Shown here piece after piece: positions 5,617-58,557 of a DNA stretch of 64,000 nucleotides. The notes beneath the pieces are model-generated. The model saw only the letters and a program-made list of their open reading frames with translations, ran no database searches and was not told the origin of the DNA. The position numbers and the translations under genes are program-made. The stretch is from positions 71,002 to 135,001 of the forward strand of contig DASWKF010000084.1 of assembly GCA_036396795.1 (NCBI GenBank), written 5' to 3'. The DNA comes from Gammaproteobacteria bacterium. GTDB lineage: Bacteria; Pseudomonadota; Gammaproteobacteria; Steroidobacterales; Rariloculaceae. Position 1 is the first letter of the stretch. Every line of letters starts with the position of its first letter.

Positions 5617-5667
5617 TCGGTTGCGAGAGGGGTCTAACATGACGATTTTTTGTCGGAGGCCGCTGGT

Positions 5668-5877: not shown

Positions 5878-5908
5878 CCGGAGCCGACGCCGCGGAGCTC
5901 ACCAGCAC

Positions 5909-6715: not shown

Positions 6716-6726
6716 CGGAACCCGCG

Positions 6727-29704: not shown

Positions 29705-30286
29705 GTGGGTCGAGATTTGCCTGTTGGGAGTCTGCCGAGCTCCAAGCAAACGGTCGTTGCAATCCTTGCGGCGACGATATTTTGCGCCTTGGTCGCCTGT
29801 ATCGAGGAGCCGCCACCGCGTAGCTATGTGGAATTCATGGACGATCGTGTTGCCAGGGAAGGCACCCTCGTTCGCTGCAACGCGGTTCGCGATGCGACCG
29901 CGGACGACGCGGAGTGCATAAACGCTCGGCGCGCCGCCGCGACACTCGCGGCCAGAGCGGACGCCGCGCAGCGGGAGCAGCGCGAAGTCGAGTCGGAAAG
30001 CCGACGACTCGCGGCGCGGCAGTATCAAGAGGCCCAAGAGGCGGCGATGCGTCGCGCCGAGACCGCGGCGATCGAGGAGCAAGAGCTCGCCTACGAGGCC
30101 CAGTGGCATGATAGCGCCGCCACGAGCACGCCCGCCCCGGAGCTCGAATACATTACATTACCCCGGTCCGTGAATCCGCCGCTCACGGCCGTCACCCTTC
30201 CCCGGGGCGCGAAGCCCCTGGAGTACACTCCGCCGAAGCCGCGGCTCGAAGAGATCTCGCCGCCCGAAAGGCGCATGACACAATAG
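29705..30286 (+). CDS. lipoprotein with EexN-like Cys motif and coiled-coil
   Basis: Lipobox ALVAC. YVEFMDDRVAREGTLVRCNA...DDAECINARRAAA resembles the EexN-family pattern. Gln/Glu/Arg-rich helix. GTG start. Confidence 0.5.
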   Translation: MGRDLPVGSLPSSKQTVVAILAATIFCALVACIEEPPPRSYVEFMDDRVAREGTLVRCNAVRDATADDAECINARRAAATLAARADAAQREQREVESESRRLAARQYQEAQEAAMRRAETAAIEEQELAYEAQWHDSAATSTPAPELEYITLPRSVNPPLTAVTLPRGAKPLEYTPPKPRLEEISPPERRMTQ

Positions 30287-33076: not shown

Positions 33077-33664
33077 TCAGCGAAACGCTACCTCGGGAAC
33101 CTCGCGTTTTTTCTCTTCGCCAATGTCGAGAAACTCCGCGTGCTTGAATTGAAAGGTGTTCGCGACCATGTTGCCGGGAAAATTCTCACAGCCGTTGTTG
33201 TAGCTCATGACCGCGTCGTTGAACGCCTGTCTCGCAAAGGCGACCTTGTTTTCCGTCGAGGCGAGCTCCTCTTGAAACTGCAGCATGTTCTGATTGGCTT
33301 TCAGATCCGGATAGTTTTCGACCAGCGCGAAAAGGCGGCCCAGAGTGCCACCGAGAACCGCTTCGGCGCTGCCGAGCGTCTTGATGGCCTCGGCATTCGC
33401 CGGATCTGCGGCCGCTTGCCTGAGCCCGGATACGGCCGAGTTCCTGGCCTCGATGACGGCGTTCAAGGTCCCGCGCTCATGAGCCATATAGCCCTTGACT
33501 GCTTCGATCAGGTTTGGAATTAGATCGTATCGGCGCGTAAGCTGGACATCGATCTGCGCGAAGGCGTTGCGTACGCGGTTGCGAAGATTGACGAGGTTGT
33601 TATAGATGGAGATAGCCCAAATCACGATGGCCGCTAAGATGCCCAGCACTATCAAGATTTCCAT
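33077..33664 (-). CDS. lemA: LemA family protein
   Basis: MEILIVLGILAAIVIWAISIYNNLVNLRNRVRNAFAQIDVQLTRRYDLIPNL. The listed start at 33934 adds a 90-aa Ser/Arg-rich extension with no support. Confidence 0.85.
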   Translation of the reverse strand: MEILIVLGILAAIVIWAISIYNNLVNLRNRVRNAFAQIDVQLTRRYDLIPNLIEAVKGYMAHERGTLNAVIEARNSAVSGLRQAAADPANAEAIKTLGSAEAVLGGTLGRLFALVENYPDLKANQNMLQFQEELASTENKVAFARQAFNDAVMSYNNGCENFPGNMVANTFQFKHAEFLDIGEEKKREVPEVAFR

Positions 33665-34712
33665 GAGGACGCTCCTAGACAGAAGTGCGAGCGGGAGCAT
33701 ACGCCGTTGCGACGGCGCTAGACAACGAACGCGCTCCCGTCGAGCAGCTGTGATTGCGTGCGCGATGACGGCGATAGCCCCCGCAACGGGTTTGGCAGGT
33801 TGGGTGGGCGAAGCGCAGGACCTCATGGGAACGCGAGTCTCGGTTGAGCTCTGGCACGACGACGAGCGGCGCGGGCGTGAGCTCGTCGAAGCGGTGCTCG
33901 AGGAGTATCGGCGCATCGACGATCGCATGAGCACCTACAAGCCCGACAGCGAAATCTCCATGATCAACCGTCTCGCGGTCTCGCAAGCCGTGCCTGTGGG
34001 CCCTGAGCTGTTCGGCCTCATCAACCGGGCGCTGATGCTGTCGAGAGACAGTAACGGCGCTTTCGACATCACCTACGAGAGCGTCGGCTATCTCTATGAT
34101 TTTCGCGCGCGCCGGCGTCCATCAGCCGCAGACTTGGCGGACCGCCTCGACGCGATCGATTATCGCAACGTGTTACTCGATCAGACTGCGAACACCATCG
34201 CATTTGCACTGCCGGCGGTGCGTATCAATCTCGGGGGCATAGCGAAGGGCTACGCCGTCGAAGCCGCCGCGGAGATCGTCCGTCGGGCCGGTGTGGGGCA
34301 CGCGATTCTCAATGCCGGCGGGGATTCCAGAGTGCTCGGTGATCGGCGCGGCCGGCCGTGGATCGTCGGCATTCGCCATCCCCGATTGCCCGGTCAGGTG
34401 GTCACGCGCGTGCCTCTCGAAGGCGAGGCGATTTCCACCTCCGGCGACTACGAGCGTTTCTTCGAAGACGACGGAAGGCGTTACCACCACATCATCAATC
34501 CGATGACTGGAGAGCCGACGCAAGAGCTCATGAGCGTCACCGTCGTCGGTCCCGACGCAACTTCGACCGACGGGCTCTCCACGGCTGTGTTCGTCATGGG
34601 CGCGGAGCGCGGTCTCGCGCTCATCGAGACGCTGCCGGAGTACGAGGCGATCATCGTCGATGCCGACGGCGGCCTGATCTACTCGAGCGGCTTCACACCC
34701 TCCGAGGAATGA
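33663..34712 (+). CDS. apbE: FAD:protein FMN transferase, probable Tat substrate
   Basis: MSTYKPDSEISMINR and GGIAKGYAV. Twin-arginine context RTRSRRAAVIACAMTAIAPATGLA requires a start at or before 33663. Confidence 0.8.
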   Translation: MRTLLDRSASGSIRRCDGARQRTRSRRAAVIACAMTAIAPATGLAGWVGEAQDLMGTRVSVELWHDDERRGRELVEAVLEEYRRIDDRMSTYKPDSEISMINRLAVSQAVPVGPELFGLINRALMLSRDSNGAFDITYESVGYLYDFRARRRPSAADLADRLDAIDYRNVLLDQTANTIAFALPAVRINLGGIAKGYAVEAAAEIVRRAGVGHAILNAGGDSRVLGDRRGRPWIVGIRHPRLPGQVVTRVPLEGEAISTSGDYERFFEDDGRRYHHIINPMTGEPTQELMSVTVVGPDATSTDGLSTAVFVMGAERGLALIETLPEYEAIIVDADGGLIYSSGFTPSEE

Positions 34713-34750
34713 GCTCACCGGGCTTTACGAGCGTAAGACCCCGATGTCTT

Positions 34751-34766
34751 GTCGCCAAACGGCGAC
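34751..34766 (+). terminator. short hairpin after apbE (weak terminator candidate)
   Basis: GTCGCC-AAAC-GGCGAC, 39 nt after the apbE stop. No U-tract. Confidence 0.25.
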
Positions 34767-34909
34767 CCAATATTCTATTGCATAATCAAAGTCTTACGTT
34801 CCGGCTCCGCCGCCCTGTAGTCGCCGACCGACAAGGATGGGGCTTGGCGGCCCGCAGCTGCTTCGCTTACTCATTGATCTAAATAGGTTAATCGCCGCCG
34901 CCGCCGCTC

Positions 34910-34925
34910 GGCACGGTTCCTGCTG
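34910..34925 (+). promoter_or_regulatory. candidate sigma-54 promoter upstream of the TPR/ExbBD/TonB-like operon
   Basis: cGGCACGgttcCTGCt has GG and GC at consensus spacing (TGGCACG-N4-TTGCW). It sits in a 414-bp ORF-free region of lower GC, 200 nt upstream of ATG 35127. A chance match is plausible in GC-rich DNA. Confidence 0.3.
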
Positions 34926-35126
34926 CCAGGAGCCCGGCGCGCGGCCGCTCACAAGAAAGATGAGACCTGGCTCATAGATCCCTTTCTCCGCTGGACATAA
35001 GGTTGTCCAGGGGTAGCGAGCCTTCACGTTCTCCGAGACTTTCCGCGCCCCGTCGCGCTCGGCGGCAGCGTGCGCGAGGCCGGCGCGTGGCCACGGAATC
35101 TAATGCTGTATGCGATTTGAGGACGA

Positions 35127-35660
35127 ATGAGAATGCGAAGGCCGAGGGCGGTGGTGACGACGACGACAATGGTGACGGTAGCGTTGATGCTGCTGCTTGG
35201 AAACGGCACAGCCTCCGTGTCGGTGGCCGCTGAATTGACGGGCGCGCCGGCTCCGGACTTCGTGCTCAAGAGTCTGTCCGGCCAGAACATGCGCTTGTCG
35301 GAGCTGCGGGGCGAAGTCGTGTTGTTGAGTTTTTGGGCGACGTGGTGCGGTGAGTGCCGCGCCCAGCTCGCCGAGCTCGGTGCATGGTACGGGCGGTATC
35401 ACGGCGCCGGTTTCGAGTTGCTCGCCATCAGCCTGGATCGCGATTGGTCCGACATCGGCGAGACGGCCGAAGCGTTGAGTCTGCCCTATCCGGTTCTTGC
35501 CGACGCGGATCTGACGGTCAGCAGGCTCTATGAGGTGACGTCGATGCCGGTGTCGATTCTGATCGATCGCGACGGCGTCGTTCGCGAAGTGATTCATGGC
35601 TTTCGGCGCGGCCGCGGGCAAAGTGACCTCGATCTCGTCAGGGAGTTGTTGAGGGAATGA
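35127..35660 (+). CDS. TlpA/redoxin-family periplasmic thiol:disulfide oxidoreductase
   Basis: Signal/anchor TMVTVALMLLLG, APDFVLKSL, FWATWCGECRAQ (CxxC). Confidence 0.85.
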   Translation: MRMRRPRAVVTTTTMVTVALMLLLGNGTASVSVAAELTGAPAPDFVLKSLSGQNMRLSELRGEVVLLSFWATWCGECRAQLAELGAWYGRYHGAGFELLAISLDRDWSDIGETAEALSLPYPVLADADLTVSRLYEVTSMPVSILIDRDGVVREVIHGFRRGRGQSDLDLVRELLRE

Positions 35661-35717
35661 TGCCGGCCGTGCCGGCGGCAATGCGGGTAGGCCCGCAAGC
35701 AAGATCTGGAGCAGTTT

Positions 35718-36308
35718 ATGCGAGGAAATAGCTACTTGACCCTACTGGCCGCGGTCGTGCTGAGCCCGGCGGCGATGGCACAGACCGACTCCGGTGACGC
35801 CTCGCTGCCGGAGTTCAACGCCTCGCAAGCGAGCACCGGCCGGGCCGGTGACGCCGCGGACTTCCGGACCTTGGATTCCGACATCCAAGACCTCAAGCAA
35901 CTGGTGTTGGAGTTGAATCGAGATCTATTTCTGCTCGAAGAAGAGCTGCTGTTCCCGGCGAATACTCAAGTCGCGATATTCGTTTCGATGGACGTCGGTG
36001 ATTTCTTCCAGCTCGATTCGGTGCAGATAAAGGTCGATGAGAAAGACGTATCCAACTATCTGTACACCGAGCGCGAAGTGAGTGCCCTGATTCGTGGAGG
36101 CGTGCACCAGATCTATCTTGGGAACCTCCGAGCCGGCGAGCACGAGCTCGTTGCGATTTTCACGGGGGAGGGTCCTCACGAAAGGGACTATCGCCGCGGC
36201 GCGACGATCGTCTTCGAGAAGGGGATTGGGCCCAAGTATATCGAGCTGACGATCTCCGATCGTGAGCAGGCGCTGCAGCCGGAGTTCGTGGTCAAGGAGT
36301 GGGAGTAG
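35718..36308 (+). CDS. secreted hypothetical protein (196 aa)
   Basis: Signal peptide LTLLAAVVLSPAAMAQ. Beta-rich body; no family recognised. Confidence 0.6.
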   Translation: MRGNSYLTLLAAVVLSPAAMAQTDSGDASLPEFNASQASTGRAGDAADFRTLDSDIQDLKQLVLELNRDLFLLEEELLFPANTQVAIFVSMDVGDFFQLDSVQIKVDEKDVSNYLYTEREVSALIRGGVHQIYLGNLRAGEHELVAIFTGEGPHERDYRRGATIVFEKGIGPKYIELTISDREQALQPEFVVKEWE

Positions 36309-36311
36309 CCG

Positions 36312-38231
36312 GTGCAGATGCCACTCCGTCGCCGTTCTCTCGGTCTCGTCGTCGTTTGCGCCCTGAAGTTGAGCACATTCGGGGCCGCATACGGCCAAGC
36401 CGACGAGCATGCGTCGCCGGGCACGGTGCAGGATCTCGCCTACGGCAAGGTGCTGTTCCACTATTTTCAAGAGGACTACTTTGCGGCACTGACCCAATTG
36501 CTCACCGCGCAATCGCGCGACGAGTTTCAGCATCATGAGAACGACGCCGAGTTGTTGCTGGGCGGCCTGCATCTGTCCTACGGTCAGCATAGACGTGCCG
36601 GCGAAATCTTCGATCGTTTGCTGGCGGAGTCCGTGGATTCGACCGTGCATGACCGCGCGTGGTTTTTCCTCGCGAAGATCTGGTACCAGCGCGGCTACCT
36701 CGTCGAGTCCGAGCGCGCGCTGAGCCGGATCAGCGGCCATTTGCCCTCCGAGTTGGAGGCCGAACGCCACATTCTCCAAGCGCGCGTGCTCATGGATCAG
36801 CAGCGCTTCGAAGAAGCGCTGGCGTTGCTCAACGCCTGGAGCGCGCCTGCCGATGAATGGGTCGGCTACGCGAAATACAACATCGGCGTCGCGCTGGTTC
36901 GTCTGGATCGCATCGACGAGGGGGCCCGCGTGCTGGACGAAGTCGGCCAAATCGCCTCGGCGAGCGAGAACGTTCGGGGCTTGAGAGATAAGGCCAACGT
37001 CGCCCTGGGCTACGCTTGGCTTCAGGCCCGCAAGCCGGATCAGGCGCGCCCGTCACTGCAACGCGTGCGCCTGCACGGCCCATATTCCAACAAAGCCCTG
37101 CTCGGTGTCGGTTGGTCGGACGCGGAGCTCGGCGACTACCAGGCGGCGTTGACGCCGTGGCTGGAACTGCGGCAGCGAAACGTTCTCGACGCCGCCGTGC
37201 AGGAGTCGCTGCTCGCGGTTCCGTATGCATTCAGCCAGCTAGGAGCGAACAGCCAGGCGGCGGATTACTATTTGAGCGCGATTGAATCGTTCAACAACGA
37301 AATCGCGCGAATGGATGTCGCCATCGCCTCGGTGCACGAAGGGGTATTCGTCGACGACCTGCTCGCCAACCGGGCTACGGATGCCTCGGGCTGGTATTGG
37401 CGGCTCGATCAGATGCCGAATTCCATCGAGAGCCACTACCTCTACGAGCTCGTCGCATCTCACGAGTTTCAGGAAGGCCTGAAGAATTATCGCGATCTAC
37501 TCTACATGCGCGAGAATCTCGATCGCTGGTCGGACAGCCTCGACGCGTTCGACGATATTCTGGACACGCGCCAGCGTGCCTACGTACAGCGGCTTCCGGT
37601 GATCGAGAGAAGCCTGGACGGCGTCGACCTGGGAGAGTTGGCATCGCGTCGCGTTGCCTACGAATCGCGGCTGATGGCGGTCGAGAGTGACGAGAACGTC
37701 TGGGCACTGGGCACGGAGGGCGAGCAGCAGGCTTCGCGCACGCTCGACGAGATGCAGAACAAGTTGGCGCTGCTCGGCGAGCATCCGGCGGCGGCGGAGC
37801 TTCGCGACAAGCATCGTTTTTTGAGGGGGGTTCTGTTGTGGAATCTCCATCGGGACTACAAAGCCCGGCTCTGGCAGGCGAAGAGGAATCTGCAGGTGCT
37901 CGAGCGGGACTTTCGTTCCGCTCAGAGGTCGTACCATCAGGTCGACCAGGCACGGGAAGAGTGGCCTGAGAAGTTCGCCGCGCTCAGCCGTCGGATCGGG
38001 GATCTCGCCCCCAGAGTCCGGACGCTCGAGGCCCGTCTTGGAACGGCTCTGGAGCAGCAGTCGCTGTACCTGAAAGCCCTGGCGAGGCGGGAGTTGCAGG
38101 CGCAACGTGACCGCTTGTCGACCTATCTCGTGCAGGCGCGGTTCGCACTGGCGTCGGTCTACGATCGCTCCACCGCCCTGTCCTCGAGTAGCGCGCCCGC
38201 GAATCGGACGCTCATCGAGGAGCTGCCGTGA
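36312..38231 (+). CDS. secreted TPR plus coiled-coil protein (639 aa)
   Basis: Signal peptide LGLVVVCALKLSTFGAAYG, TPR-like helices in the N-terminal half, and a long heptad-rich C-terminal half. Confidence 0.7.
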   Translation: MQMPLRRRSLGLVVVCALKLSTFGAAYGQADEHASPGTVQDLAYGKVLFHYFQEDYFAALTQLLTAQSRDEFQHHENDAELLLGGLHLSYGQHRRAGEIFDRLLAESVDSTVHDRAWFFLAKIWYQRGYLVESERALSRISGHLPSELEAERHILQARVLMDQQRFEEALALLNAWSAPADEWVGYAKYNIGVALVRLDRIDEGARVLDEVGQIASASENVRGLRDKANVALGYAWLQARKPDQARPSLQRVRLHGPYSNKALLGVGWSDAELGDYQAALTPWLELRQRNVLDAAVQESLLAVPYAFSQLGANSQAADYYLSAIESFNNEIARMDVAIASVHEGVFVDDLLANRATDASGWYWRLDQMPNSIESHYLYELVASHEFQEGLKNYRDLLYMRENLDRWSDSLDAFDDILDTRQRAYVQRLPVIERSLDGVDLGELASRRVAYESRLMAVESDENVWALGTEGEQQASRTLDEMQNKLALLGEHPAAAELRDKHRFLRGVLLWNLHRDYKARLWQAKRNLQVLERDFRSAQRSYHQVDQAREEWPEKFAALSRRIGDLAPRVRTLEARLGTALEQQSLYLKALARRELQAQRDRLSTYLVQARFALASVYDRSTALSSSSAPANRTLIEELP

Positions 38232-41056
38232 GCGCCGCGTCTGCGCTGATCGCCGCCGTCGCAGCGGCCGCGCTCTGGCCGCCGTGGCCCTTCGGCCGCG
38301 ATGCGGCCCGCGACCAGGAGCGGGCTCCGACGATCGAGGATCTCCCGGCACAGAGCATCGCCGTCGATACGCAGGCGCCGATCTCCGAGGCGCAAGCCAA
38401 GGCCATGGAAAGCTATCAGCTATTCATCGACTTGGCTGGAGACGATCCCGTGCTGCAGGCGGAGGCGATGCGCCGTCTCGCAGATTTGCAGCTCGAAACC
38501 AGCGAGCTCGAGCAACTGCAGCGGAATCTGGATTCGGTGCAGAATCAAGCGGCGGATGCGATCCAGCTCTATGAGGCTCTGCTGACGACCTATCCGGCCT
38601 ATGAGAAGAACGACCTCGTGCTCTACCAGTTGGCGCGGGCGTATGAGCTGGGTGGCGATCCCGATCGCGCGCTGAGCACCTTGGATCACCTCGTCTTTGA
38701 GTACCCGGATACTCCGCATTTCGCCGAGGCGCAGTTCAGGCGCGGCGAGATCCTGTTCGTGCAACGCCGCTACTTCGATGCCGAGGCCGCCTATGCGGCG
38801 GTATTGAGCACCGCGGAGCCCCAGTTCCGCGAGCAGTCGCTGTACAAGCACGCATGGTCGCTGTTCAAGCAGCTCCAGCACCGCGAGAGTCTCGACTCCT
38901 TCTTCGAGCTTCTGGATCGGAAGCTGACGGACACGCAGGCATCGGCAGGCGCTTCCGTCGAGGAGCTCTACGATGCCATGGGCCGAGCCGACCAGGAGCT
39001 CGTCGACGATACGATTCGGGTGCTTTCGATCAATTTTTCCTATATCGACGGCCCTCGATCCGTAACCGAATATTTCGAGAGCACGGGCGTACCTCCGTAC
39101 GCCTATGTCATCTACCAAAGCCTCGGATCTCTGTATCTGGAGAAGGAGCGATATCAGGATGCCGCGGCGGCATATCAAGCATTCGGCGAGCTCGACCCCC
39201 ATCATCCCCGTGCGCCGTTGCTTCAGGCTCAAGTCATCGAGGCGTATCAGGCCGGCGGGTTCGCAGGTCTGGTGCTCGAAGCGAAACAGGTTTTCGTCGA
39301 GCGCTACGGGGCGAGCAGCCCGTATTGGGAAGCTTTCAGCTATGAGGATCAGCCGGAGATCACCGGGTATCTCCAGGCCAACCTCATGGACCTTGCAGCG
39401 TACTACCACGCGCAGGCGCAAGGCTCGGGAGATCCGGAAAGCTACGCACTCGCAGCGCGCTGGTACCGGGACTACCTCGCGGCGTTTCCGAACGACACGG
39501 GCTCCGCCCACACGAACTTTCTGCTTGCGGAGGTACTGTACGAAAGCGGCGACCATCTTTCCGCGGTCACGGAGTACGAGCGTACCGCCTACGCCTACCC
39601 CGATCACGCAGCAAGCGCCGAAGCCGGGTATGCGGCGCTGCTCGCTTACAGTGCCGTCGAGCCGGGTCTGAACGAATCCCAGCGTGAGCCGTGGCAGAGA
39701 CGTCAGATAGACAGCGCCTTGCGCTTCGCGGCGACCTTCCCGCAGCATCCGGAGGCGGATGCCGTGCTGACGAACGCGGCCGAGAAACTATTTTCGTTCA
39801 ATGAGTTATATCGTGCCAACGAGGTCGCGCGCGAGCTTCTGGCGCGGACTCCAGCGGCGGAAGCAGCATTGCAAAGAACTGCCTGGACCGTCGTTGCGCA
39901 TTCGGAGTTCGAGCTTCAGAACTTTGCCGATGCCGAGGCGGCCTACCTGCGACTGATGGCGTTTCTGCCCGCGGACGATGCGCAGCGAAGCGAGATTACC
40001 GAGCGCATCGCGTCTTCGATATACCGTCAAGGCGAGCAACAGCGAAGCGCGGGAGACTATCTCGGATCCGTGGCGCACTTTCTGCGCGTGGCGGAAGCCG
40101 CGCCGGGCTCGCGTATCGCCGCGACGGCGCGCTACGACGCCGCCGCGGACCTGATGGCCTTGGAAGATTGGCCGCGGGCGGCGCAGGTGCTCGAGGATTT
40201 TCGCCGCGACTATCCGGAGCACGAGTATTCCGCGGACGTTACCGGGAAGCTCGCGGTCACGTATCTCAATTCGGGCAACTCGGTCAAAGCAGCGGCGGAA
40301 TTCGAGCAGATTGCCGACGCCGATCCATCTGACGAAGTGCGCAAGGAAGCGCTATGGCGCGCGGCGGAGCTGTACCGGGAATCGGAGCTGCTCGGCGACG
40401 CGGCCGTGACCTTGGAGCGCTATGTCGAACGCTATCCGCGCCCGGCACCGATGGCCATTGAAGCCCAGCAGCAGCTCGTGGACCTTTCGGAGCAGTCGGA
40501 CAACTACCCGGCGCGCATGCGTTGGCTGCGAGCGATCGTCGACACCGACGCAGGAGCCGGCGCGGGGCGCACGGACAGAACGCGCTTTCTCGCGGCGCAC
40601 GCCGCGCTCGAGCTCGCCATGCCGTCCCGGGACGCGTTTACCGCCGTCAAGCTGGCTGCGCCCCTGCAACAGAGCCTGGAGCTAAAGAAACAGCGCATGG
40701 AAGACGCGCTCAGCGCCTTCGGCCGGGCCGTCGATTACGCTGTCGGCGACGTGACGACTGCCGCCACCTATGAGATCGCAGAGCTCTACAACCAGCTCAG
40801 CCGAGATCTCATGGACTCCGAGCGGCCTGCGGAGCTCAGCGAGCTGGAGCTCAGCCAATACGAAATCCTGCTCGAGGAGCAGGCGTTCCCGTTCGAGGAG
40901 CAGGCAATCGACGTGCACGAGGTGAATGCCGCGCGCACGGCCGACGGCGTCTACGACGACGCGGTGCGCGCGAGCCTCGATGCATTGGCCGCGCTCCTGC
41001 CCGTGCGTTATGCGAAAAACGAGCAAGGGGAGGTTTATGTTGCAACGATTCAATGA
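38228..41056 (+). CDS. large TPR-repeat protein (942 aa)
   Basis: Repeated A..Y..A/L TPR pattern throughout, e.g. LYQLARAYELGGDPDRALSTLDHLVFEYPDTPHFAEAQFRRGEILF. GTG start overlaps the upstream stop (GTGA). Confidence 0.75.
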   Translation: MSAASALIAAVAAAALWPPWPFGRDAARDQERAPTIEDLPAQSIAVDTQAPISEAQAKAMESYQLFIDLAGDDPVLQAEAMRRLADLQLETSELEQLQRNLDSVQNQAADAIQLYEALLTTYPAYEKNDLVLYQLARAYELGGDPDRALSTLDHLVFEYPDTPHFAEAQFRRGEILFVQRRYFDAEAAYAAVLSTAEPQFREQSLYKHAWSLFKQLQHRESLDSFFELLDRKLTDTQASAGASVEELYDAMGRADQELVDDTIRVLSINFSYIDGPRSVTEYFESTGVPPYAYVIYQSLGSLYLEKERYQDAAAAYQAFGELDPHHPRAPLLQAQVIEAYQAGGFAGLVLEAKQVFVERYGASSPYWEAFSYEDQPEITGYLQANLMDLAAYYHAQAQGSGDPESYALAARWYRDYLAAFPNDTGSAHTNFLLAEVLYESGDHLSAVTEYERTAYAYPDHAASAEAGYAALLAYSAVEPGLNESQREPWQRRQIDSALRFAATFPQHPEADAVLTNAAEKLFSFNELYRANEVARELLARTPAAEAALQRTAWTVVAHSEFELQNFADAEAAYLRLMAFLPADDAQRSEITERIASSIYRQGEQQRSAGDYLGSVAHFLRVAEAAPGSRIAATARYDAAADLMALEDWPRAAQVLEDFRRDYPEHEYSADVTGKLAVTYLNSGNSVKAAAEFEQIADADPSDEVRKEALWRAAELYRESELLGDAAVTLERYVERYPRPAPMAIEAQQQLVDLSEQSDNYPARMRWLRAIVDTDAGAGAGRTDRTRFLAAHAALELAMPSRDAFTAVKLAAPLQQSLELKKQRMEDALSAFGRAVDYAVGDVTTAATYEIAELYNQLSRDLMDSERPAELSELELSQYEILLEEQAFPFEEQAIDVHEVNAARTADGVYDDAVRASLDALAALLPVRYAKNEQGEVYVATIQ

Positions 41057-41723
41057 CCCCCCGGATATCGGGTGGACGTCAGCGGCGGCTTACCGCGCCG
41101 CGCTGCTCGTGCTGGTGCTCGCCGCCAGCGCATGCTCGTCGCCGGGTCCCGTTCGTCCCGACTCGCCGAACGCGGGGGTGGGCGAGGGCGACGGCTTGGC
41201 GACCGTGGTTCCCGCACCCACGCAGGCGGCGTACGACCGCGCGCTGCAAGCGATGATCGAGGGCGATCTGGTCGAAGCGGAGCTCCAGCTCGAGCAGTTC
41301 GTGTTGGAGTACCCGGCTTTCGCGGGGCCTCACGTCAATCTTGCGATTCTCTACGCTCAAAGCGGCAGAAGCGACGAGGCGGAAGCGGCACTGGGGCGAG
41401 CGCTGGCGATCGATCCGGAGCATCCCGCCGCCAACAACCGGCTCGGCATGCTGCTGCGGCAACAGGGGCGCTTCGCCGAGGCGGAGGCCGCGTACCTCAA
41501 CGCGCTCGAGGTCGACCCCGAGTATGCGCTGGCACATTTGAACCTGGCGATTCTGCTCGACCTCTATCTGCACCGGCCTAGCGAGGCCCTGACGCACTAT
41601 CGGGCGTATCAGGATTCGCTGGCGGAACCCGACACCACCGTCGGGCTATGGATCATCGATTTGCAGCGCCGCCTCGGCGCCAGTGACAGTGAAGCGCGCG
41701 TCGCTCGAGGAGAGGAGCCATGA
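41037..41723 (+). CDS. TPR lipoprotein
   Basis: Lipobox LAASAC. TPR repeats (NLAILYAQSGRSDEAEAALGRALAIDPEHPAANNRLGMLLRQQGRFAEAEAAYLNALEVDPEY). Confidence 0.75.
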   Translation: MLQRFNDPPDIGWTSAAAYRAALLVLVLAASACSSPGPVRPDSPNAGVGEGDGLATVVPAPTQAAYDRALQAMIEGDLVEAELQLEQFVLEYPAFAGPHVNLAILYAQSGRSDEAEAALGRALAIDPEHPAANNRLGMLLRQQGRFAEAEAAYLNALEVDPEYALAHLNLAILLDLYLHRPSEALTHYRAYQDSLAEPDTTVGLWIIDLQRRLGASDSEARVARGEEP

Positions 41724-42154
41724 TTTCCAAGGCCGGTTGCATCGTTTCCGGAATCGTTTCGTTGAGCTTCGGCGCGGCTTTCGCGCAGCCGCCTCAGGGC
41801 GGCGAGACCGCCGCGCCGACGTTGAGCTTCGAGGAGCTCGCGTCGCTGGAGCCCGCCGTCGACACGGCCAACCTGAGCCCGCGCGGGGATGCGCCGCAGG
41901 GCAGCGCTCCGACGTCGGTTGCTTCGAGCCGAGTCGTGGACTCGTTGGATCTGGGAACCACGTCAATAACCGGAAACCAGGAATTGCCTAAGGTTCTATA
42001 TATCGTGCCCTGGAAGCAAGCGGATCTCGGTGATCTCGTCGGCCGTCCAGTGAACACCCTGCTCGACGAGGTGTTGGCGCCGGTGGATCCGGAAGTATTT
42101 GAACGTCAGCTGGGGTACTACGAAGCCCTGCACGCAAAGGATGAAGAGGAGTAA
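41720..42154 (+). CDS. small periplasmic protein (144 aa)
   Basis: Signal peptide IVSGIVSLSFGAAFAQ; conserved-looking ELPKVLYIVPWK. ATGA overlap with the upstream gene. Confidence 0.6.
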   Translation: MISKAGCIVSGIVSLSFGAAFAQPPQGGETAAPTLSFEELASLEPAVDTANLSPRGDAPQGSAPTSVASSRVVDSLDLGTTSITGNQELPKVLYIVPWKQADLGDLVGRPVNTLLDEVLAPVDPEVFERQLGYYEALHAKDEEE

Positions 42155-42159
42155 ATCCA

Positions 42160-42804
42160 ATGGAGCTCTATTCCACGATCGTGAGGTTCTTCCAGGAGGG
42201 TGGGGTGTTCATGTATCCCATCGTGCTCGTGTTCGCGCTGGGCTTGGCTATCGCGATCGAGCGGTGGCTGTACCTGACGATGACGACGGCGAAGAACAAG
42301 GCCCTGTGGAGCAAGATCACGCCCCATCTCAAGGCCGGGAATTTTTCCGCGGCGGCGCAGATGGCCAGCAAGTCGAAAGCGGCGATCGCGACCATCATGA
42401 CCTACGGATTGAACCGCGTGCGCTCCGCGCGCCAGCGTGAGGATATCGAGAAGGCCATGGAGGAAAGCCTCATGGAGGTCGTCCCGCGGCTGGAGCGGCG
42501 CACGCACTATCTGGCGATTTTCGCCAATATCGCCACCTTGCTGGGCCTGTTGGGCACGATCATCGGCTTGATACGCGCGTTCACTGCGGTGTCGAACGCG
42601 AACCCCGCGGAAAAGGCGGACCTGTTGTCGGCCAGCATATCCGTCGCGATGAACACGACCGCATTCGGCCTGATGGTTGCGATTCCGTTGCTGCTGGTAC
42701 ATACGCTGCTGCAGACCAAGACGACGGAAATCGTCGACAGCCTCGAGATGGCGTCGGTGAAGTTTCTGAACTCCATTAGCGACCGCTCCGAAGCGAACGT
42801 GTAA
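42160..42804 (+). CDS. MotA/TolQ/ExbB proton-channel protein
   Basis: FANIATLLGLLGTIIGLIRAF...SISVAMNTTAFGLMVAIPLLLVH, 214 aa. Confidence 0.9.
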   Translation: MELYSTIVRFFQEGGVFMYPIVLVFALGLAIAIERWLYLTMTTAKNKALWSKITPHLKAGNFSAAAQMASKSKAAIATIMTYGLNRVRSARQREDIEKAMEESLMEVVPRLERRTHYLAIFANIATLLGLLGTIIGLIRAFTAVSNANPAEKADLLSASISVAMNTTAFGLMVAIPLLLVHTLLQTKTTEIVDSLEMASVKFLNSISDRSEANV

Positions 42805-42822
42805 TCACGGGTTATAGCCAGC

Positions 42823-43329
42823 ATGAGTCTTCGCCGCTCGAGAGGTCAACGCCATAAGGAAACCGTGGAGCTGAACATCACGGCTTTCATGAATCTCATG
42901 GTGATTTTGGTGCCGTTCTTGCTGATCACGGCCGTGTTTTCGCAGGTCGCGATACTGGAGCTGAATCTGCCCACGGGCGAGACCGGTCCAGTCGAGCCGA
43001 CCGAGCCGGAGCTGTATCTCGAGATCACGGTTCGAGAGAGCGCCATCGCCGTCGGCGACCGCAACGCCGGCGTGCTGACCGTGATCGGCAAAGGCGCCGA
43101 CGGTTACGATCTCGAGAAGCTCGGTGAGTATCTACAGCAGGTCAAGCAGAGATTTCCCGATAAGGCGGATGCGACCTTGTTGCTCGAGCCGGACATCTCC
43201 TATGAGACGCTGGTGGCCGTCATGGACACGGTGCGTCTCCACGAGAGACTCGATCCGAGCTCCAAGCGGGTGATCAGCTACGAGTTGTTTCCAGAGATTG
43301 CGATCGGAGATGCGCCTGCGCGCAACTAA
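42823..43329 (+). CDS. ExbD/TolR-family protein (Asn at the TM Asp position)
   Basis: ELNITAFMNLMVILVPFLLITAVF, then a periplasmic ExbD-like domain. Confidence 0.85.
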   Translation: MSLRRSRGQRHKETVELNITAFMNLMVILVPFLLITAVFSQVAILELNLPTGETGPVEPTEPELYLEITVRESAIAVGDRNAGVLTVIGKGADGYDLEKLGEYLQQVKQRFPDKADATLLLEPDISYETLVAVMDTVRLHERLDPSSKRVISYELFPEIAIGDAPARN

Positions 43330-43343
43330 GGGGGGGAGCACGA

Positions 43344-43871
43344 ATGCGATCCAGCGGACGAGCAGCGCGCATGGAGCGGCACCACCAACGCCACAAGCGT
43401 ACCGTGGCGCTCAACCTCGTGTCGCTCATGGATATTTTCACGATCCTCGTGTTCTTCCTCCTCGTCAACTCCAGCGAGGTGCAAACGCTGCCGAACGCCA
43501 AGGACATGTCCTTGCCCGAGTCCGTGGCGGAGCAGCGCCCGCGGGAGACGGTCGTGATCATGGTCACCGAGCAGGACTTGCTCGTGCAGGGCAGGGCCGT
43601 AGCTCGAATAGACGAGCTGATGGCTCAGGACGGTCTCATCATCCCGGAGCTCAAGGCCGCGCTCCAAGGCCAAGCCGAACGCCTGCTGCGTCAGGACGCT
43701 CAGGACGAGCCGGAGCAGTGGGAAGTGACGATCATGGGTGATCGAGAGGTGCCGTACAGCCTGCTCAAGCGCGTCATGGCTACCTGCACCGACGCCGACT
43801 ACGGCCGTCTGTCGCTCGCCGTGCTGCAGAAAACTTCAGAGCTTCAGCTCGCGGCTGCGGCGGCCAACTAG
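43344..43871 (+). CDS. ExbD/TolR-family protein (TM Asp present)
   Basis: ALNLVSLMDIFTILVFFLLVNS, then a periplasmic ExbD-like domain. Confidence 0.85.
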   Translation: MRSSGRAARMERHHQRHKRTVALNLVSLMDIFTILVFFLLVNSSEVQTLPNAKDMSLPESVAEQRPRETVVIMVTEQDLLVQGRAVARIDELMAQDGLIIPELKAALQGQAERLLRQDAQDEPEQWEVTIMGDREVPYSLLKRVMATCTDADYGRLSLAVLQKTSELQLAAAAAN

Positions 43872-43883
43872 GAGCTCGATCTC

Positions 43884-44855
43884 GTGAACGACGCCGTGGT
43901 CATCCATCGGATCTACGAGCTTCCCTGGTCCACCGGGGCGGAGCAGGAGCAGAAGTTTCGCCGCCTGGTGCTGCAATGCCTGGGGGCACTGCTACTGTTG
44001 AGCATCGTTTTTTCCGTGCTGCCGGTCGCGGAGCGGGATCCACTGGCGACTCAGGAGATTCCTCAACGATTCGCGCGGCTCGTGCTCGAGCGCGAACCGC
44101 CGCCGCCGCCGGTCATCGAGCAACAGCCCGAGCCGGAGCCGATCGTCGAGCCCGAGCCCGTCGTGGAGCAGACGGTGACGGAACCCGAGCCGGAGCCCGT
44201 GATCGAGCCGGAGCCGGAGCTGACGCCGCAACCCGACGTCACGGAGCAGGCACGGGAGCGCGCGGCCGTCGCCGGCTTACTGCCGTTCGCGCAGGATCTT
44301 GCGGCGCTCAGGAGCAACGACACGCTGGAGCGGCTCGGAACGAGCGATACGCTCGGCACGGTCGAGGGCGAGGCGCCGGTGGTCGAACGTTCGCTGATCA
44401 CCTCGCGCGCCGGCTCCCGCAGCACCGGCATCAGAACGTCCGACCTGAGCCGGTCGACCGGCGGTGAGGAGCTTGCGGGCAGGACGACGACACAGATAGA
44501 AAGCCCGATAGAGGGCATCGGCCCCGCCGGAGGCGACGTCTCACGGTCCGGGGCGAGCTCGCGGCCCTCCCGCAGCCGCGAGGAGATCGAAATCGTGTTC
44601 GATCGCAACAAGGGCGCGATCTTCGCGCTTTACAACCGTGCGCTGCGCGAGAACCCAGCCCTCGTCGGCAAGGTCGTCCTGCGCCTCACGATCGAGCCCG
44701 GTGGCCGCGTGACGTTCTGCGAGATCGTGTCGTCGGAGCTCGGGGATCCCAGCCTCGAACAGAGACTGGTGCAGCGCGTGTTGCTGTTTCAGTTTGAAGC
44801 CAAGGACGTGGAACCGATCACGACCACGAAGCCGATAGATTTCTTCCCGGCTTGA
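43884..44855 (+). CDS. TonB-like energy-transducer protein with AgmX/PglI-type C-terminal domain
   Basis: N-terminal TM LGALLLLSIVFSVLPV and a Pro/Glu-rich spacer. C-terminus IFALYNRALRENPALVGKVVLRLTIEPGGRVTFCEIVSSELGDPSLEQRLVQRVLLFQFE. GTG start. Confidence 0.8.
   Translation: MNDAVVIHRIYELPWSTGAEQEQKFRRLVLQCLGALLLLSIVFSVLPVAERDPLATQEIPQRFARLVLEREPPPPPVIEQQPEPEPIVEPEPVVEQTVTEPEPEPVIEPEPELTPQPDVTEQARERAAVAGLLPFAQDLAALRSNDTLERLGTSDTLGTVEGEAPVVERSLITSRAGSRSTGIRTSDLSRSTGGEELAGRTTTQIESPIEGIGPAGGDVSRSGASSRPSRSREEIEIVFDRNKGAIFALYNRALRENPALVGKVVLRLTIEPGGRVTFCEIVSSELGDPSLEQRLVQRVLLFQFEAKDVEPITTTKPIDFFPA
44097..44234 (+). repeat. Pro/Glu-rich low-complexity (EP)n coding repeat inside the TonB-like gene
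   Basis: PPPPPVIEQQPEPEPIVEPEPVVEQTVTEPEPEPVIEPEPELTPQP. At DNA level these are reiterated GAGCCSGAGCCS units. Confidence 0.7.
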
Positions 44856-50259: not shown

Positions 50260-50305
50260 CTGTGCTCGCGTGGCATGACAAACACTATTCAGGAGGATGA
50301 CGGTC

Positions 50306-50938
50306 ATGAAACTTAGGCTTGGACCGATTTTAGGAATGTTGGGCTTGGCCCCAGCGGTCTCGATGGCGCAATTCTCGGGCAACGTCGGCTATATGAGCGA
50401 CTACATCTTCCGGGGTGTGTTTCAAGAAGACTCGTCGGCCATGGGCGGGCTCGATTACGAGCACGACAGCGGATTCTACATCGGCACCTGGGCCGCGGAC
50501 GTCGGCGACGGACTGGAAACGGACCTGTACTTCGGCTATGGCGGCAGTTCCGGGGACTTCAGCTACAGCATCGGCTTCACCGGGTATTTTTACACGGACG
50601 ATTTCGATGACACCTACCAGGAAATCAATCTCGGTGTCGGCTGGGCGGGCTTGAGCTTGGATTTCGCCGCGGGCGAGTGGGACGGATTCGGCGCCTCGCA
50701 GGATTACACGTTCACGTCGCTCGGTTACGAGTTCCCGGCCGGCTTCTATATCACTCTCGGAAGCTGGGGCGATGACTTCGACGGTGACTACGCGGAGCTC
50801 GGCTACGGCTTCTCGTGGGAAGAGATCGATTTCTCGATCGCCTGGGTAAACAGCAGCGACTTTTTCGTCAGCGAAGACACATTCGCCGACAACGCGCTTA
50901 CATTCTCCATCAGCAAGTCGTTCGCGATAGGAGAGTAA
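50306..50938 (+). CDS. TorF-family putative outer-membrane porin
   Basis: AGGAGG 9 nt upstream of ATG 50306 and a signal peptide. FSGNVGYMSDYIFRGVFQEDSSAMGGLDYEHDSGFYIGTWAADV, with alternating beta-strand pattern throughout. Confidence 0.75.
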   Translation: MKLRLGPILGMLGLAPAVSMAQFSGNVGYMSDYIFRGVFQEDSSAMGGLDYEHDSGFYIGTWAADVGDGLETDLYFGYGGSSGDFSYSIGFTGYFYTDDFDDTYQEINLGVGWAGLSLDFAAGEWDGFGASQDYTFTSLGYEFPAGFYITLGSWGDDFDGDYAELGYGFSWEEIDFSIAWVNSSDFFVSEDTFADNALTFSISKSFAIGE

Positions 50939-51304
<366 letters not shown>

Positions 51305-51324
51305 GGCGGGAGGAGTAAAGCAAA

Positions 51325-52572
51325 ATGGATATCTTAGAACTCAGCTACGCACTCGATACGTTCTACTTCCTCGTGATGGGAGCGCTCGTGATGTGGATGG
51401 CTGCGGGCTTCACGATGCTCGAGGCGGGTTTGGTGCGGGCGAAAAATACCGCAGAAATCCTGACGAAGAACGTGGGGCTCTATTCGATCGCTTGCATCAT
51501 GTACATGATCTGCGGCTACGGCATCATGTATGGAGATGGTAACGGCGTCATCCCGGGAATCAGCATGCTGACTTCCGCCGATAACGCCACCGCCGACGTG
51601 CTCGCCGGCGGCGACGATGCTCCATATTATTCGAGCCTGTCGGACTTCTTCTTTCAGGTCGTGTTCGTGGCAACCGCGATGTCGATCGTGTCCGGCGCCG
51701 TCGCCGAGCGCATGAAGCTGTTCTCGTTCTTGTTGTTCGCCGTCGTCCTGACCGGAGTGATCTATCCCGTGCAGGGCTACTGGAAATGGGGCGGCGGCTG
51801 GCTCAACGAGGCCGGCTTTCTGGACTTCGCGGGCTCAGGCGTCGTGCATTTGTGCGGCGGCGCAGCGGCATTGGCCGGAGTGCTCCTGCTCGGCGCGCGC
51901 AAGGGTAAATACGGCCCGGGCGGCGAGGTTCGGGCGATTCCCGGCGCCAACCTGCCGTTGTCGGCCCTCGGCACGCTGATCCTCTGGCTGGGGTGGTTCG
52001 GCTTCAACGGGGGCTCCGAGCTCAAGATCGCCAACGTCGAGGAAGCGAACGCGGTGTCGCTGGTCATCGTCAACACCAACATGGCGGCAGCCGGCGGACT
52101 GGTCGCGGCGCTGCTGTTGGCGCGCGCCTGGTTCGGCAAGGCCGATTTGACGATGGCGTTGAACGGCGCGCTCGCGGGTCTGGTGGCGATCACGGCGGAG
52201 CCGCTCACCCCCACACCGGTGCTCGCGACGATCATCGGAGCGATCGGTGGCCTGATTGTGGTTCCGTCCATCGTTTTCCTCGACAAGGCCCTGAAGATCG
52301 ACGATCCGGTCGGCGCAATCTCCGTGCACGGCGTCGTCGGTATGTGGGGTCTATTGGCCGTGTGCCTGTCCAATCCCGATTCTTCGATCGGCGCACAGCT
52401 GCTCGGTCTGGCAACGATCTTCGCGTGGGTGTTTCTGACGAGCTTCGTGGTCTGGCTGATCATCAAGGTCATCATCGGGATCCGAGTATCCGAAGAGGAA
52501 GAATACGAAGGGGTCGATATCGGCGAGTGTGGGCTCGAGGCTTACCCCGAGTTCGCTCCCAAACCCGAATAG
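51325..52572 (+). CDS. amtB: ammonium transporter
   Basis: About 11 TMs. DFAGSGVVHLCGG, LGWFGFNGGS, DDPVGAISVHGVVG. Confidence 0.95.
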   Translation: MDILELSYALDTFYFLVMGALVMWMAAGFTMLEAGLVRAKNTAEILTKNVGLYSIACIMYMICGYGIMYGDGNGVIPGISMLTSADNATADVLAGGDDAPYYSSLSDFFFQVVFVATAMSIVSGAVAERMKLFSFLLFAVVLTGVIYPVQGYWKWGGGWLNEAGFLDFAGSGVVHLCGGAAALAGVLLLGARKGKYGPGGEVRAIPGANLPLSALGTLILWLGWFGFNGGSELKIANVEEANAVSLVIVNTNMAAAGGLVAALLLARAWFGKADLTMALNGALAGLVAITAEPLTPTPVLATIIGAIGGLIVVPSIVFLDKALKIDDPVGAISVHGVVGMWGLLAVCLSNPDSSIGAQLLGLATIFAWVFLTSFVVWLIIKVIIGIRVSEEEEYEGVDIGECGLEAYPEFAPKPE

Positions 52573-57409: not shown

Positions 57410-58557
57410 CACCAGCCCTCCGTCAGGCCGCCGTCGAACCAATCCCAAAGCAGGTAGAACACGAGCTGCTTGTCTCTGACCGAGGTGTCGGTGACAGGAA
57501 CGCGAACTCCGAAGTTCGCCATGACGTGTTGGCGGACATTGAGGGTGACCTGAAACTGCGGCACGAGATCCCATTGGGCAGCACCGCCGCCGCTCAAGGT
57601 CTTCGCCCCGAGCACTTCGACGATCGGTGTCCAGGCGCGACCGAAGCGTCCCCCGCTGGTCCAGGTTCTGCCGAAGGCAGCCCTGAGCACGAGCTCCTCG
57701 TCGAAACCGGACTCGACTGGGAGCTCCAGCTTGCCTTGGAACTGGACGAACGAATCTTGTGGCAGCAGCTTCGCGTACAACAGATAGGGCTCGAGCACGG
57801 CGGTGCCTTTGCCGAAGCCGCGGTCCTCGTCTCCGGTTGGGAGCACCAGCTCGCCACCTATGCTCAAGATCGATTGCGTCTCGAGGCTGTGACGTATGGC
57901 GTGTTTCAAGGCGAGGGTCAGGTCGCCGATGCCGGATTCCGTGCCGGCGGGCTCCCCGAGATCCGCGCGGGTCCAGGGTAGGCTGATCTCGATCTGGCTG
58001 CGCGGGCCGAAGCGTTGTTCCCAGGTGAAGCGCTGCGTGATCGCGTCGGCGCCCTCGGTGTCGATGGAGGTTCGAACGATGGCCTCGTCCTCGGGGAAGG
58101 CCTTTTCCGTGAACAGTGCTTTGGGAACGTTGAGCTCGCCGCGCGGCCAGTTCGTGTCCGCGCACTGGGTCCGCACATGGTCCAGGGTCCGCTGAATCTC
58201 GTCATCCGACAAGGCTTCGCCGAAAGCCGGCATCTTGCGGTCGAAGCCTCGAGCAGGCCCGCCTTCGTGAATGACGGCGAGCCAGTCGGAATCGGGCTCG
58301 CGCGCGGCGAAGTCGCAGTCGGTGAAATCGGGGACCGCCAGCTCGAAGCCGAGCTGACTGGCTGTCAAGCCGCGACCGTCGGCGCCGTGACAGGCGGCGC
58401 AGGCGGCTTCATAGAGATCATCGCCGTCGGTGCCGAATGACGTTGTGATGCTCGCCTGGGGCGGCTGTCCGTTCGTTTGCGATACCGCCAGCGCGATGCA
58501 GGAAAAAAAGGCGGCAATGAATCCATTCCGCAGAGATACGATCCGCTGGCTAGGCAT
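57409..58557 (-). CDS. class-I cytochrome c domain fused to a putative outer-membrane beta-barrel
   Basis: Signal peptide FIAAFFSCIALAVSQ. DDLYEAACAACHGADG (CxxCH) with a distal Met context RKMPAFGEALSDDEI. About 270 aa of alternating amphipathic strands follow, ending ...LVFYLLWDWFDGGLTEGW (aromatic terminus). Confidence 0.65.
   Translation of the reverse strand: MPSQRIVSLRNGFIAAFFSCIALAVSQTNGQPPQASITTSFGTDGDDLYEAACAACHGADGRGLTASQLGFELAVPDFTDCDFAAREPDSDWLAVIHEGGPARGFDRKMPAFGEALSDDEIQRTLDHVRTQCADTNWPRGELNVPKALFTEKAFPEDEAIVRTSIDTEGADAITQRFTWEQRFGPRSQIEISLPWTRADLGEPAGTESGIGDLTLALKHAIRHSLETQSILSIGGELVLPTGDEDRGFGKGTAVLEPYLLYAKLLPQDSFVQFQGKLELPVESGFDEELVLRAAFGRTWTSGGRFGRAWTPIVEVLGAKTLSGGGAAQWDLVPQFQVTLNVRQHVMANFGVRVPVTDTSVRDKQLVFYLLWDWFDGGLTEGW

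Follow-up and report, generated by a model that had tools for sequence, protein, structure and literature searches.

The 64,000-nucleotide (nt) stretch of DNA analyzed here, referred to below as the window, covers positions 71,002 to 135,001 of contig DASWKF010000084.1 (assembly GCA_036396795.1) from an uncultured gammaproteobacterium. Its plus strand carries, at 35127 to 44855, an operon of ten open reading frames (ORFs), which encode one MotA/TolQ/ExbB-family protein, two ExbD/TolR-family proteins, a TonB-like protein, three tetratricopeptide repeat (TPR) proteins of which one is a lipoprotein, a TlpA-like oxidoreductase, and two secreted proteins of 196 and 144 amino acids (aa) (Table 1). 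A first-pass annotation made from the sequence had counted eleven genes, whereas the ORF list and the publicly available gene calls for the contig give ten, and reading of the sequence revealed no ORF between 34910 and 35127. In other respects, the layout that it had described was recovered, with all genes on one strand, intervals of 60 nt or less, and three overlaps, and the composition of motor, TonB-like, and TPR proteins agreed with the families assigned by Pfam and NCBIfam. The overlaps consist of a GTGA at 38228, of 20 nt at 41037 to 41056, and of an ATGA at 41720, while the remaining gaps do not exceed 57 nt. Within the operon, no internal promoter or terminator signal stood out above the background.

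Table 1. Coordinates in the window of the ten-gene operon, of the elements upstream of it, and of a second gene cluster
Feature	Coordinates	Strand	Basis
Distal inverted repeat TGTCGCCAAACGGCGACc, TGTC-N10-GACA with one mismatch	34750..34767	+	Alignment of 36 upstream regions
Proximal inverted repeat TGTAGTCGCCGACCGACA (TGTA-N10-GACA)	34816..34833	+	Alignment of 36 upstream regions
Predicted sigma-54 (-24/-12) element cGGCACGgttccTGCT	34909..34924	+	GG at 34910-11, GC at 34922-23
Gene 1, TlpA/ResA/DsbE-family periplasmic thiol:disulfide oxidoreductase, 177 aa	35127..35660	+	Pfam, NCBIfam
Gene 2, secreted protein without known family, 196 aa	35718..36308	+	
Gene 3, periplasmic TPR protein in GltC-like position, 639 aa	36312..38231	+	Weak TPR matches (Pfam)
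Gene 4, TPR protein, GltD homologue, 942 aa	38228..41056	+	hhalign, blastp
Gene 5, TPR outer-membrane lipoprotein in GltE-like position, 228 aa	41037..41723	+	Lipobox, TPR Pfam
Gene 6, secreted protein, "additional gene" of the core complex, 144 aa	41720..42154	+	Position
Gene 7, MotA/TolQ/ExbB-family proton-channel subunit in AglR-like position, 214 aa	42160..42804	+	PF01618, 104 bits
Gene 8, first ExbD/TolR-family subunit, AglQ-like position, 168 aa	42823..43329	+	PF02472
Gene 9, second ExbD/TolR-family subunit, AglS-like position, 175 aa	43344..43871	+	PF02472
Gene 10, TonB-like transducer, GltG-like, 323 aa	43884..44855	+	NF033768, tonB_Cterm
Ser/Thr kinase	736-1662	+	
TPR protein	1637-3181	+	
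PEGA x4 + FGE-sulfatase protein	3163-5616	+	
MotA_ExbB protein, 341 aa	5690-6715	+	
Protein with C-terminal FHA domain, 467 aa	6727-8130	+	

For comparison, about 35 related loci, each 6 kb or longer, were taken from metagenome-assembled genomes (MAGs) and metagenomes. As far as the contigs reach, each of these loci keeps all ten genes in the same order and orientation, with protein identities of 50 to 94%, while the flanks vary: the window has apbE on one side and a radical-SAM gene on the other, whereas locus L008 has purL-type genes and an inositol phosphatase gene. Given this collinearity across about 35 loci whose flanks differ, the ten-gene arrangement is not a matter of chance, and the motor genes are co-conserved with the TPR genes, the two genes without known family, and the reductase gene. 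Together with the start/stop overlaps and the lack of internal promoter or terminator signals, the collinearity indicates that the ten genes form one functional unit. The TlpA-like gene and the 196-aa gene, which the first-pass annotation had regarded as extras, instead belong to the fixed set of operon genes in this clade; they lie outside the seven to eight core genes listed in PMC3169522. Genes for a TonB-dependent receptor, TolB, or Pal, which had likewise been reported as missing, are found neither in the operon across these loci nor, in the window, in its immediate flanks and in the 30 other ORFs that were scanned.

The operon corresponds closely to the core complex of the Agl-Glt machinery, described as GltC, GltD, GltE, one gene without a myxobacterial homologue, AglR, AglQ, AglS, and GltG, all encoded at a single locus (PMC3169522). 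Its carriers were reported to be one betaproteobacterium, several gammaproteobacteria, Geobacter, and Fibrobacter, where its role was unknown (PMC3169522), in agreement with what the first-pass annotation had stated of it. Published clusters include Mpe_A1224-1231 of Methylibium petroleiphilum, Maqu_1807-1814 of Marinobacter aquaeolei, and Tgr7_0536-0543 of Thioalkalivibrio (PMC3169522). Listed in the order of Table S3 of that study, the published proteins measure 550-692, 933-1016, 162-263, (a skipped locus tag), 205-272, 169-188, 162-185, and 321-334 aa (PMC3169522), and those of the window measure 639, 942, 228, 144, 214, 168, 175, and 323 aa. By position and size, the same eight genes follow one another in the same order at a single locus and at near-equal lengths, and in both cases a small additional gene separates the aglR-like gene from the gltE-like one. 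When the two are compared by listed genes, the clade of the window differs in adding the TlpA-like and 196-aa genes upstream; it has the whole set under a predicted sigma-54 promoter with TGTN-N10-GACA sites. We consider it likely that the locus encodes a stand-alone Agl-Glt-type core complex, i.e., a Tol/Ton-like machine that would convert the proton gradient into mechanical work in the cell envelope. Membership in the core complex, which the first-pass annotation had proposed, is based on gene order and sizes, on the full-length GltD homology of gene 4, on the NF033768 match of gene 10, and on the presence of two unlike TolR-type genes beside one TolQ-type gene. The outcome that would have pointed elsewhere, namely, an ordinary TolQRA or ExbBD-TonB set with a linked receptor and TPR genes that are not co-conserved, is not what we found, as the equivalog scores lie far below their cut-offs and the TPR genes are strictly co-conserved.

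The most specific link to the Glt proteins comes from gene 4. The Glt reference was a locus from a Myxococcales MAG (L003), in which NCBIfam recognizes a partial GltC, a 1225-aa GltD-like protein, GltE, and GltG, and the hhalign queries were family profiles built from related loci. The gene 4 profile aligned with the Myxococcales GltD over 778 columns (98.4%, E value 8e-15; columns 110-931 versus 208-1191) but had no match to GltC or GltE of the same locus, and blastp of gene 4 against GltD gave an E value of 3e-11. By these alignments, the 942-aa protein is a GltD homologue, and the homology is full-length and specific. Its homologues exceed 6000 in number, most of them about 940 aa long, and it is probably the central periplasmic scaffold of the complex. 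Gene 3 agrees in size and position with Mpe_A1224, Maqu_1814, and TERTU_3747, which are listed as homologues of MXAN_2541 in Table S3 of PMC3169522. Gene 5 encodes a lipoprotein with the lipobox AASAC, followed by S, and the lipobox Cys is conserved among its relatives. In some relatives (P0049, P0079, P0082, and P0116), the GltD-like and GltE-like proteins are fused into one chain of 1138-1145 aa; these fusions agree with the way the two genes overlap by 20 nt in the window, as well as with GltD and GltE being in physical contact.

The channel protein encoded by gene 7 is the most conserved protein of the operon, with identities of 74 to 94%. Among the equivalogs, it scores best with TolQ (64 bits, cut-off 221) and lower with ExbB (40 bits, cut-off 206), and its nearest solved structures are those of TolQ (E value 5e-7) and ExbB (E value 8e-6), to which only the core helices align. 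Genes 8 and 9 encode clearly different proteins, although both match PF02472. Where TolR and ExbD have the essential proton-carrying Asp in the transmembrane segment, the gene 8 product has Asn (FMNLMV), and this is kept in the nine loci of a subclade (the window, L001, L010, L013, L014, L045, L053, L077, and L087), whereas the gene 9 product keeps the Asp (LMDIF) in 16 of 16 sequences and a more distant subclade (L028, L029, L043, L055, and L057) has Asp in both TolR-like proteins. The equivalog cut-offs for ExbD (30 versus 216 bits), TolR (25 versus 127 bits), and TonB (26 versus 377 bits) are all missed, and those of NCBIfam for GltE, GltG, and GltJ are not reached by proteins of the window either.

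The gene 10 product starts with a conserved cytoplasmic YRIYELPWSTG stretch, followed by one transmembrane helix, a Pro/Glu-rich spacer, and a C-terminal domain of the AgmX/PglI type. The latter, which had been noticed in the first-pass annotation, is borne out by NF033768 (60 bits, cut-off 40), and it aligns with the C terminus of the Myxococcales GltG in hhalign (94.7%, E value 6e-8). By comparison, the TIGR01352 tonB_Cterm model is passed at 29.3 versus a cut-off of 27.1, and Pfam TonB_C, at 19, stays under its cut-off. Besides the CxxC and lipobox cysteines, Cys279 in this C-terminal domain is the sole invariant Cys in the exported proteins of the operon (11 sequences), which makes it a candidate substrate of the TlpA-like reductase.

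This reductase, the product of gene 1, is encoded at the head of the operon in every related locus. A signal peptide is present, and the CxxC motif (WCGEC, C74/C77) is invariant among relatives; the protein matches AhpC-TSA, Redoxin, and Thioredoxin_8 in Pfam and scores 99 bits with the NCBIfam ResA subfamily, under the equivalog cut-off. Upstream of it, an apbE gene (FAD:protein FMN transferase; 33606-34712) ends 38 nt before the distal repeat, and the closest relatives have the same neighbor. Genes of the TlpA-DUF4266-DUF3570 set often accompany apbE.

In the 196-aa protein encoded by gene 2, a signal peptide and a variable linker precede a long helix (46-78), after which comes an eight-stranded beta-sandwich (84-195), and the C terminus is an invariant ..EWE. 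An AlphaFold2 model built with 63 diverse representatives reached a pLDDT of 85 overall and above 90 for residues 50-196, with a helix of 33 residues, whereas with 36 close homologues the pLDDT was 47. The protein has no sequence match in Pfam, NCBIfam, or the PDB, where profile searches returned coiled-coil noise only, and Foldseek against the PDB gave nothing at an E value below 1e-3, the best result (E value 2.4e-3, TM-score at most 0.35) being a generic beta-sandwich; tblastn against plasmids gave no match. The family comprises 1263 clusters at 50% identity, and the 196-aa protein is among the most conserved products of the operon (62-82% identity versus 56-71% for the GltD-like protein). 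Two of its members (P0164 and P0221) are called "AraC family transcriptional regulator" in NCBI records, a label that looks like an annotation error, given the signal peptide and the lack of a helix-turn-helix.

The gene for the 196-aa protein invariably lies directly upstream of the GltC-like gene, also in relatives at 44% identity, and two distant loci show this pair in another setting. In L091 (634-7310), the pair (44% identity) follows genes for an OMP_b-brl/SH3 protein, a 214-aa barrel ending in YFF, TlpA, DUF4266, and DUF3570, and after it there is no GltD-like or motor gene on the same strand, the next gene being ssb on the opposite strand. In L092 (8161-13800), an OMP_b-brl/SH3 gene and a gene for a 216-aa barrel precede the pair (44% identity), and a GltD-like gene follows. 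The layout of L091 suggests that the pair and the barrel genes make up a separable outer-membrane module. Because the pair adjoins predicted outer-membrane barrel genes in both loci, we suggest that it may act at the outer membrane, in the way that the Myxococcus model has GltC working with the GltA/B barrels. The TlpA-DUF4266-DUF3570 genes of L091 and the apbE neighbor in the window hint at a shared ancestry of the TlpA gene neighborhood.

Gene 6 occupies the position of the locus tag that is skipped between the gltE-like and aglR-like genes in Table S3 of PMC3169522. An alignment of 35 homologues shows a signal peptide, a Pro/Ala-rich disordered linker, and near-invariant C-terminal 65 residues (LDLGTTSITGNQELPKVLYIVPWK...), and there is no match in Pfam or NCBIfam. 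PF27998, an entry not contained in the Pfam set searched here, is precomputed on a gene 6 homologue (P0284), so the family of this additional gene may recently have been given a Pfam entry. A diverged GltF was considered for the 144-aa protein and rejected, as hhalign against the ORF in GltF position of the Myxococcales MAG aligned only the signal peptide; its likeness to GltF would be one of positional analogy. A TTSITG stretch in the 144-aa protein loosely resembles a TonB box.

The operon is preceded by a candidate sigma-54 promoter, already proposed in the first-pass annotation, whose conservation argues for it: a -24/-12 element with a score of at least 20/23 lies 100 to 255 nt upstream of gene 1 in 43 of 48 non-identical loci, with the consensus TGGCA[CT]G-N4-[CG]TGCT, while about 3% of random 400-nt windows reach a score of at least 21. 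No sigma-70-like site was found upstream on the plus strand, and the 200-nt leader contains no RNA element according to an Rfam scan and folding. Farther upstream, the alignment of 36 regions displays two inverted repeats. In 33 of the 36 loci, the proximal one, TGT[CA]-N10-GACA, precedes the -24 element by 83 to 95 nt (mostly by 93), and in one more it does so by 71 nt; its pattern occurs once in the 64-kb window, and 2.5% of random 300-nt windows carry such a site. The distal one appears in the alignment as a conserved TGTCG..GCGAC block, and half of the loci (18/36) have an exact TGT[CA]-N10-GACA that precedes the -24 element by about 160 nt. In a comparative sense the sigma-54 promoter is real, and dependence on RpoN is predicted from it. 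As neither the sigma-54 element nor the repeats occur in L091 and L092, the two distant loci, this regulation is specific to the clade.

Both in sequence and in placement, the repeats match the consensus of GlrR/QseF, which is TGTCN10GACA at the sigma-54 promoters of glmY (PMC3045617), and they serve as a lead to an activator of the GlrR/QseF-like type. Like the glmY and rpoE promoters controlled by GlrK/GlrR (QseE/QseF) in Enterobacteriaceae, the promoter described here has a sigma-54 element and, at a distance of about 100 bp or more upstream, more than one TGTC-N10-GACA site. However, only the site consensus is common to them, there are two sites here instead of three, and the target genes are unrelated. 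The promoter architecture argues for expression under certain conditions, with envelope signals as a possible trigger.

Some of our results weigh against reading the locus as an Agl-Glt-type core complex. Gene 3 has no match to NF033756, nor does it align in hhalign with the partial C-terminal GltC fragment of L003, and GltC orthology of the 639-aa protein would rest on position and size. The GltE-like similarity of gene 5 stays at the level of generic TPR repeats, given that NF033758 (GltE) yields 39 bits (cut-off 225) and that the hhalign match to GltE (96%) covers the TPR region only and is no better than that to another TPR protein. Orthology of the three motor proteins with AglR, AglQ, and AglS would similarly rest on position and size. 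The Asn in one of the two TolR-like proteins is unusual for this class of motors and could mean an altered or regulatory function, and the transmembrane helix of the TonB-like protein lacks the His that TonB and TolA employ in their SHLS motif. As for regulation, a GlrR/QseF-like activator is suggested by a short consensus, and no activator gene was found among the 30 scanned ORFs of the window outside the operon. Finally, the output and the cargo of the machine are guesses.

Among the alternatives, the one that survives best, although we deem it improbable, is an extra Tol-Pal-like system, in which a TolQRA paralogue with CpoB/YbgF-like TPR partners would stabilize or constrict the outer membrane. 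The two systems are alike in their TolQ/TolR-family inner-membrane motor, elongated transducer, YbgF/CpoB-like TPR repeats, and probable role at the outer membrane, and TolQ is both the closest solved structure and the best equivalog of the channel protein. Moreover, the 942-aa protein passes TIGR02795 (YbgF/CpoB) at 101 bits versus a cut-off of 90.1, a score reached by summing four repeat stretches, and public annotation calls its relatives "TolA-binding protein." At 942 aa versus 263 aa for CpoB, however, it belongs to a set of much larger TPR proteins, and its alignment with GltD is end-to-end. Scores for TolQ and TolR lie far under the cut-offs, two unlike TolR-type genes, predicted to give a heterodimeric pair, stand in place of one, the transducer C-terminal domain is of another subfamily (AgmX/PglI type), the promoter is of the sigma-54 type, and TolB and Pal genes are missing from the operon in the whole set of loci.

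An ordinary additional TonB-ExbB-ExbD system that energizes TonB-dependent receptors for nutrient import is largely refuted, and we rate it as very unlikely. It would account for the MotA_ExbB and ExbD Pfam domains, for the narrow pass of tonB_Cterm, and for the TonB-like Pro/Glu-rich spacer of the transducer. On the other hand, none of the loci has a linked receptor gene, the ExbB and ExbD equivalogs are far under their cut-offs and Pfam TonB_C is under its gathering score, three TPR proteins and two secreted proteins of no known family are strictly co-conserved with the motor, and the promoter has sigma-54 and enhancer-type elements. In addition, Teredinibacter turnerae without its four canonical tonB genes does not grow under iron limitation or on cellulose (PMC10734418), and its genome carries GltG-like genes (Table S3 of PMC3169522). 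The loss of tonB is thus not compensated despite the GltG-like genes, which argues that GltG-like proteins do not replace TonB.

The homology to GltD, GltG, and Agl-type parts might also be taken to mean that the locus encodes a complete gliding machine and that its host glides like Myxococcus, which appears just as unlikely. The operon shares with the Agl-Glt machinery of Myxococcus xanthus and its Nfs sporulation paralogue a full-length GltD homologue, one TolQ-like and two TolR-like motor genes, a GltG-type C-terminal domain on a single-pass Pro-rich inner-membrane protein, and TPR lipoprotein partners. It differs from the machinery of M. xanthus in being a single operon instead of three clusters, in its GltD (942 aa versus about 1220 aa), and in its transducer, which measures 323 aa versus about 650-700 aa and lacks the cytoplasmic FHA domain of GltG. 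The group A genes gltA, gltB, gltF, gltH, gltI, gltJ, and gltK, which are restricted to gliders and needed for gliding (PMC3169522), are found neither in the operon nor in its flanks, and the same holds for cglB. Furthermore, the core genes are insufficient for motility, and most of their carriers are not known gliders (PMC3169522). Scarcely credible, finally, is a Zorya-like or other anti-phage defense built on a MotAB-type motor, since the weak ZorA match of the channel protein (PADLOC, 18 bits, E value 2e-4) is at family level only, the other nine proteins have no PADLOC match, synteny on the chromosome is stable in the clade, and nuclease or effector genes are absent.

With the Agl-Glt-type core complex as the preferred reading, a mechanism can be outlined by analogy with TolQR, ExbBD, AglRQS, and the Myxococcus model, from which stoichiometry, contacts, and output are all inferred; composition, homologies, the unity of the operon, and the promoter elements are what the sequence comparisons show. 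In the published Myxococcus model, AglR5QS interacts with the helix of GltG, whose arm wraps around GltD; the C terminus of GltD carries GltE, and GltC provides the link to outer-membrane barrels (PMC11761067); an interaction between AglR and GltG was detected by two-hybrid analysis in Myxococcus (PMC3169522). By analogy, the inner membrane would contain a pentamer of the channel protein around the two TolR-like proteins, paired as a heterodimer, and proton flow would drive the movement of this motor. The TonB-like protein would couple to the motor through its transmembrane helix while its proline-rich arm spans the peptidoglycan, and arm and C-terminal domain would grip the 942-aa GltD-like scaffold. 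The scaffold, in turn, would be tethered to the outer membrane via the GltE-like lipoprotein and the pair of GltC-like and 196-aa proteins, so that the output would be force or movement exerted on something at the outer membrane's inner face. The operon would be switched on only when a sigma-54 activator recognizing TGTN-N10-GACA is active. It may be speculated that the TlpA-like enzyme keeps Cys279 of the TonB-like protein in the right redox state.

With regard to the role of the complex, we favor, with low confidence, an envelope or surface process such as the movement or assembly of surface polymers or the upkeep of the outer membrane, on account of the outer-membrane-proximal partners and of the enhancer sites of the envelope-signal type; nutrient import and motility are less likely. 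The core complex has previously been proposed to be a basal transport machine (PMC3858216, published in 2013), and a literature search on its function outside myxobacteria returned nothing beyond this paper and that of 2011 (PMC3169522), while full-text searches with the locus tags of the published core clusters returned no papers.

A more far-reaching reading, which we put forward as doubtful in its entirety, is that the core complex here is a ten-protein machine, expressed on demand from a sigma-54 promoter by an envelope-signal activator of the GlrR/QseF type, and that it contains two parts not recognized so far. According to this reading, the 196-aa and GltC-like proteins would form a minimal outer-membrane platform that echoes GltA/B/C of Myxococcus, the action of the TlpA-like reductase on Cys279 would gate the transmission of force by redox state, and the invariant TTSITG strand of the 144-aa protein would be a TonB-box-like handle, a role proposed for GltF in Myxococcus.

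The core complex itself has already been published, and the locus adds no new class to it; what the comparison contributes is the fixed ten-gene set, the two uncharacterized conserved subunits, and the sigma-54/enhancer architecture. The core complex is thought to be ancestral to the gliding motor and the spore-coat machine of Myxococcus, and it is widespread, the relatives of the GltD-like protein alone being so numerous in public data. The ten-gene set, the two unstudied subunits, the sigma-54 promoter with its activator sites, and the pair of cysteine and reductase offer handles for its study, and Marinobacter, Cellvibrio, and Methylibium are among its carriers.

Other features of the window were noted along with the operon. 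Downstream of it, glnK (P-II) and amtB follow a Gcw_chp gene at a distance of 5-7 kb (50297-52572), and the same set is found 2-4 kb downstream in L008 (18887-21238), the genes in between being different in the window and in L008; this proximity may be a remnant of synteny, or it may connect sigma-54 with nitrogen control. At 736-8130 on the plus strand there is a second, unrelated cluster around a MotA/TolQ/ExbB-like protein (Table 1), beside which no ExbD/TolR gene was seen. A 193-aa protein (29705-30286) barely passes the model of the EexN-family (entry exclusion) lipoproteins, with 34.2 versus 33 bits, in a chromosomal context. On the minus strand, a 785-aa protein with an MtrC/MtrF-like outer-membrane multiheme cytochrome domain (55808-58165) adjoins a cytochrome c protein (57409-58557), and this pair suggests that the host has a capacity for extracellular electron transfer.

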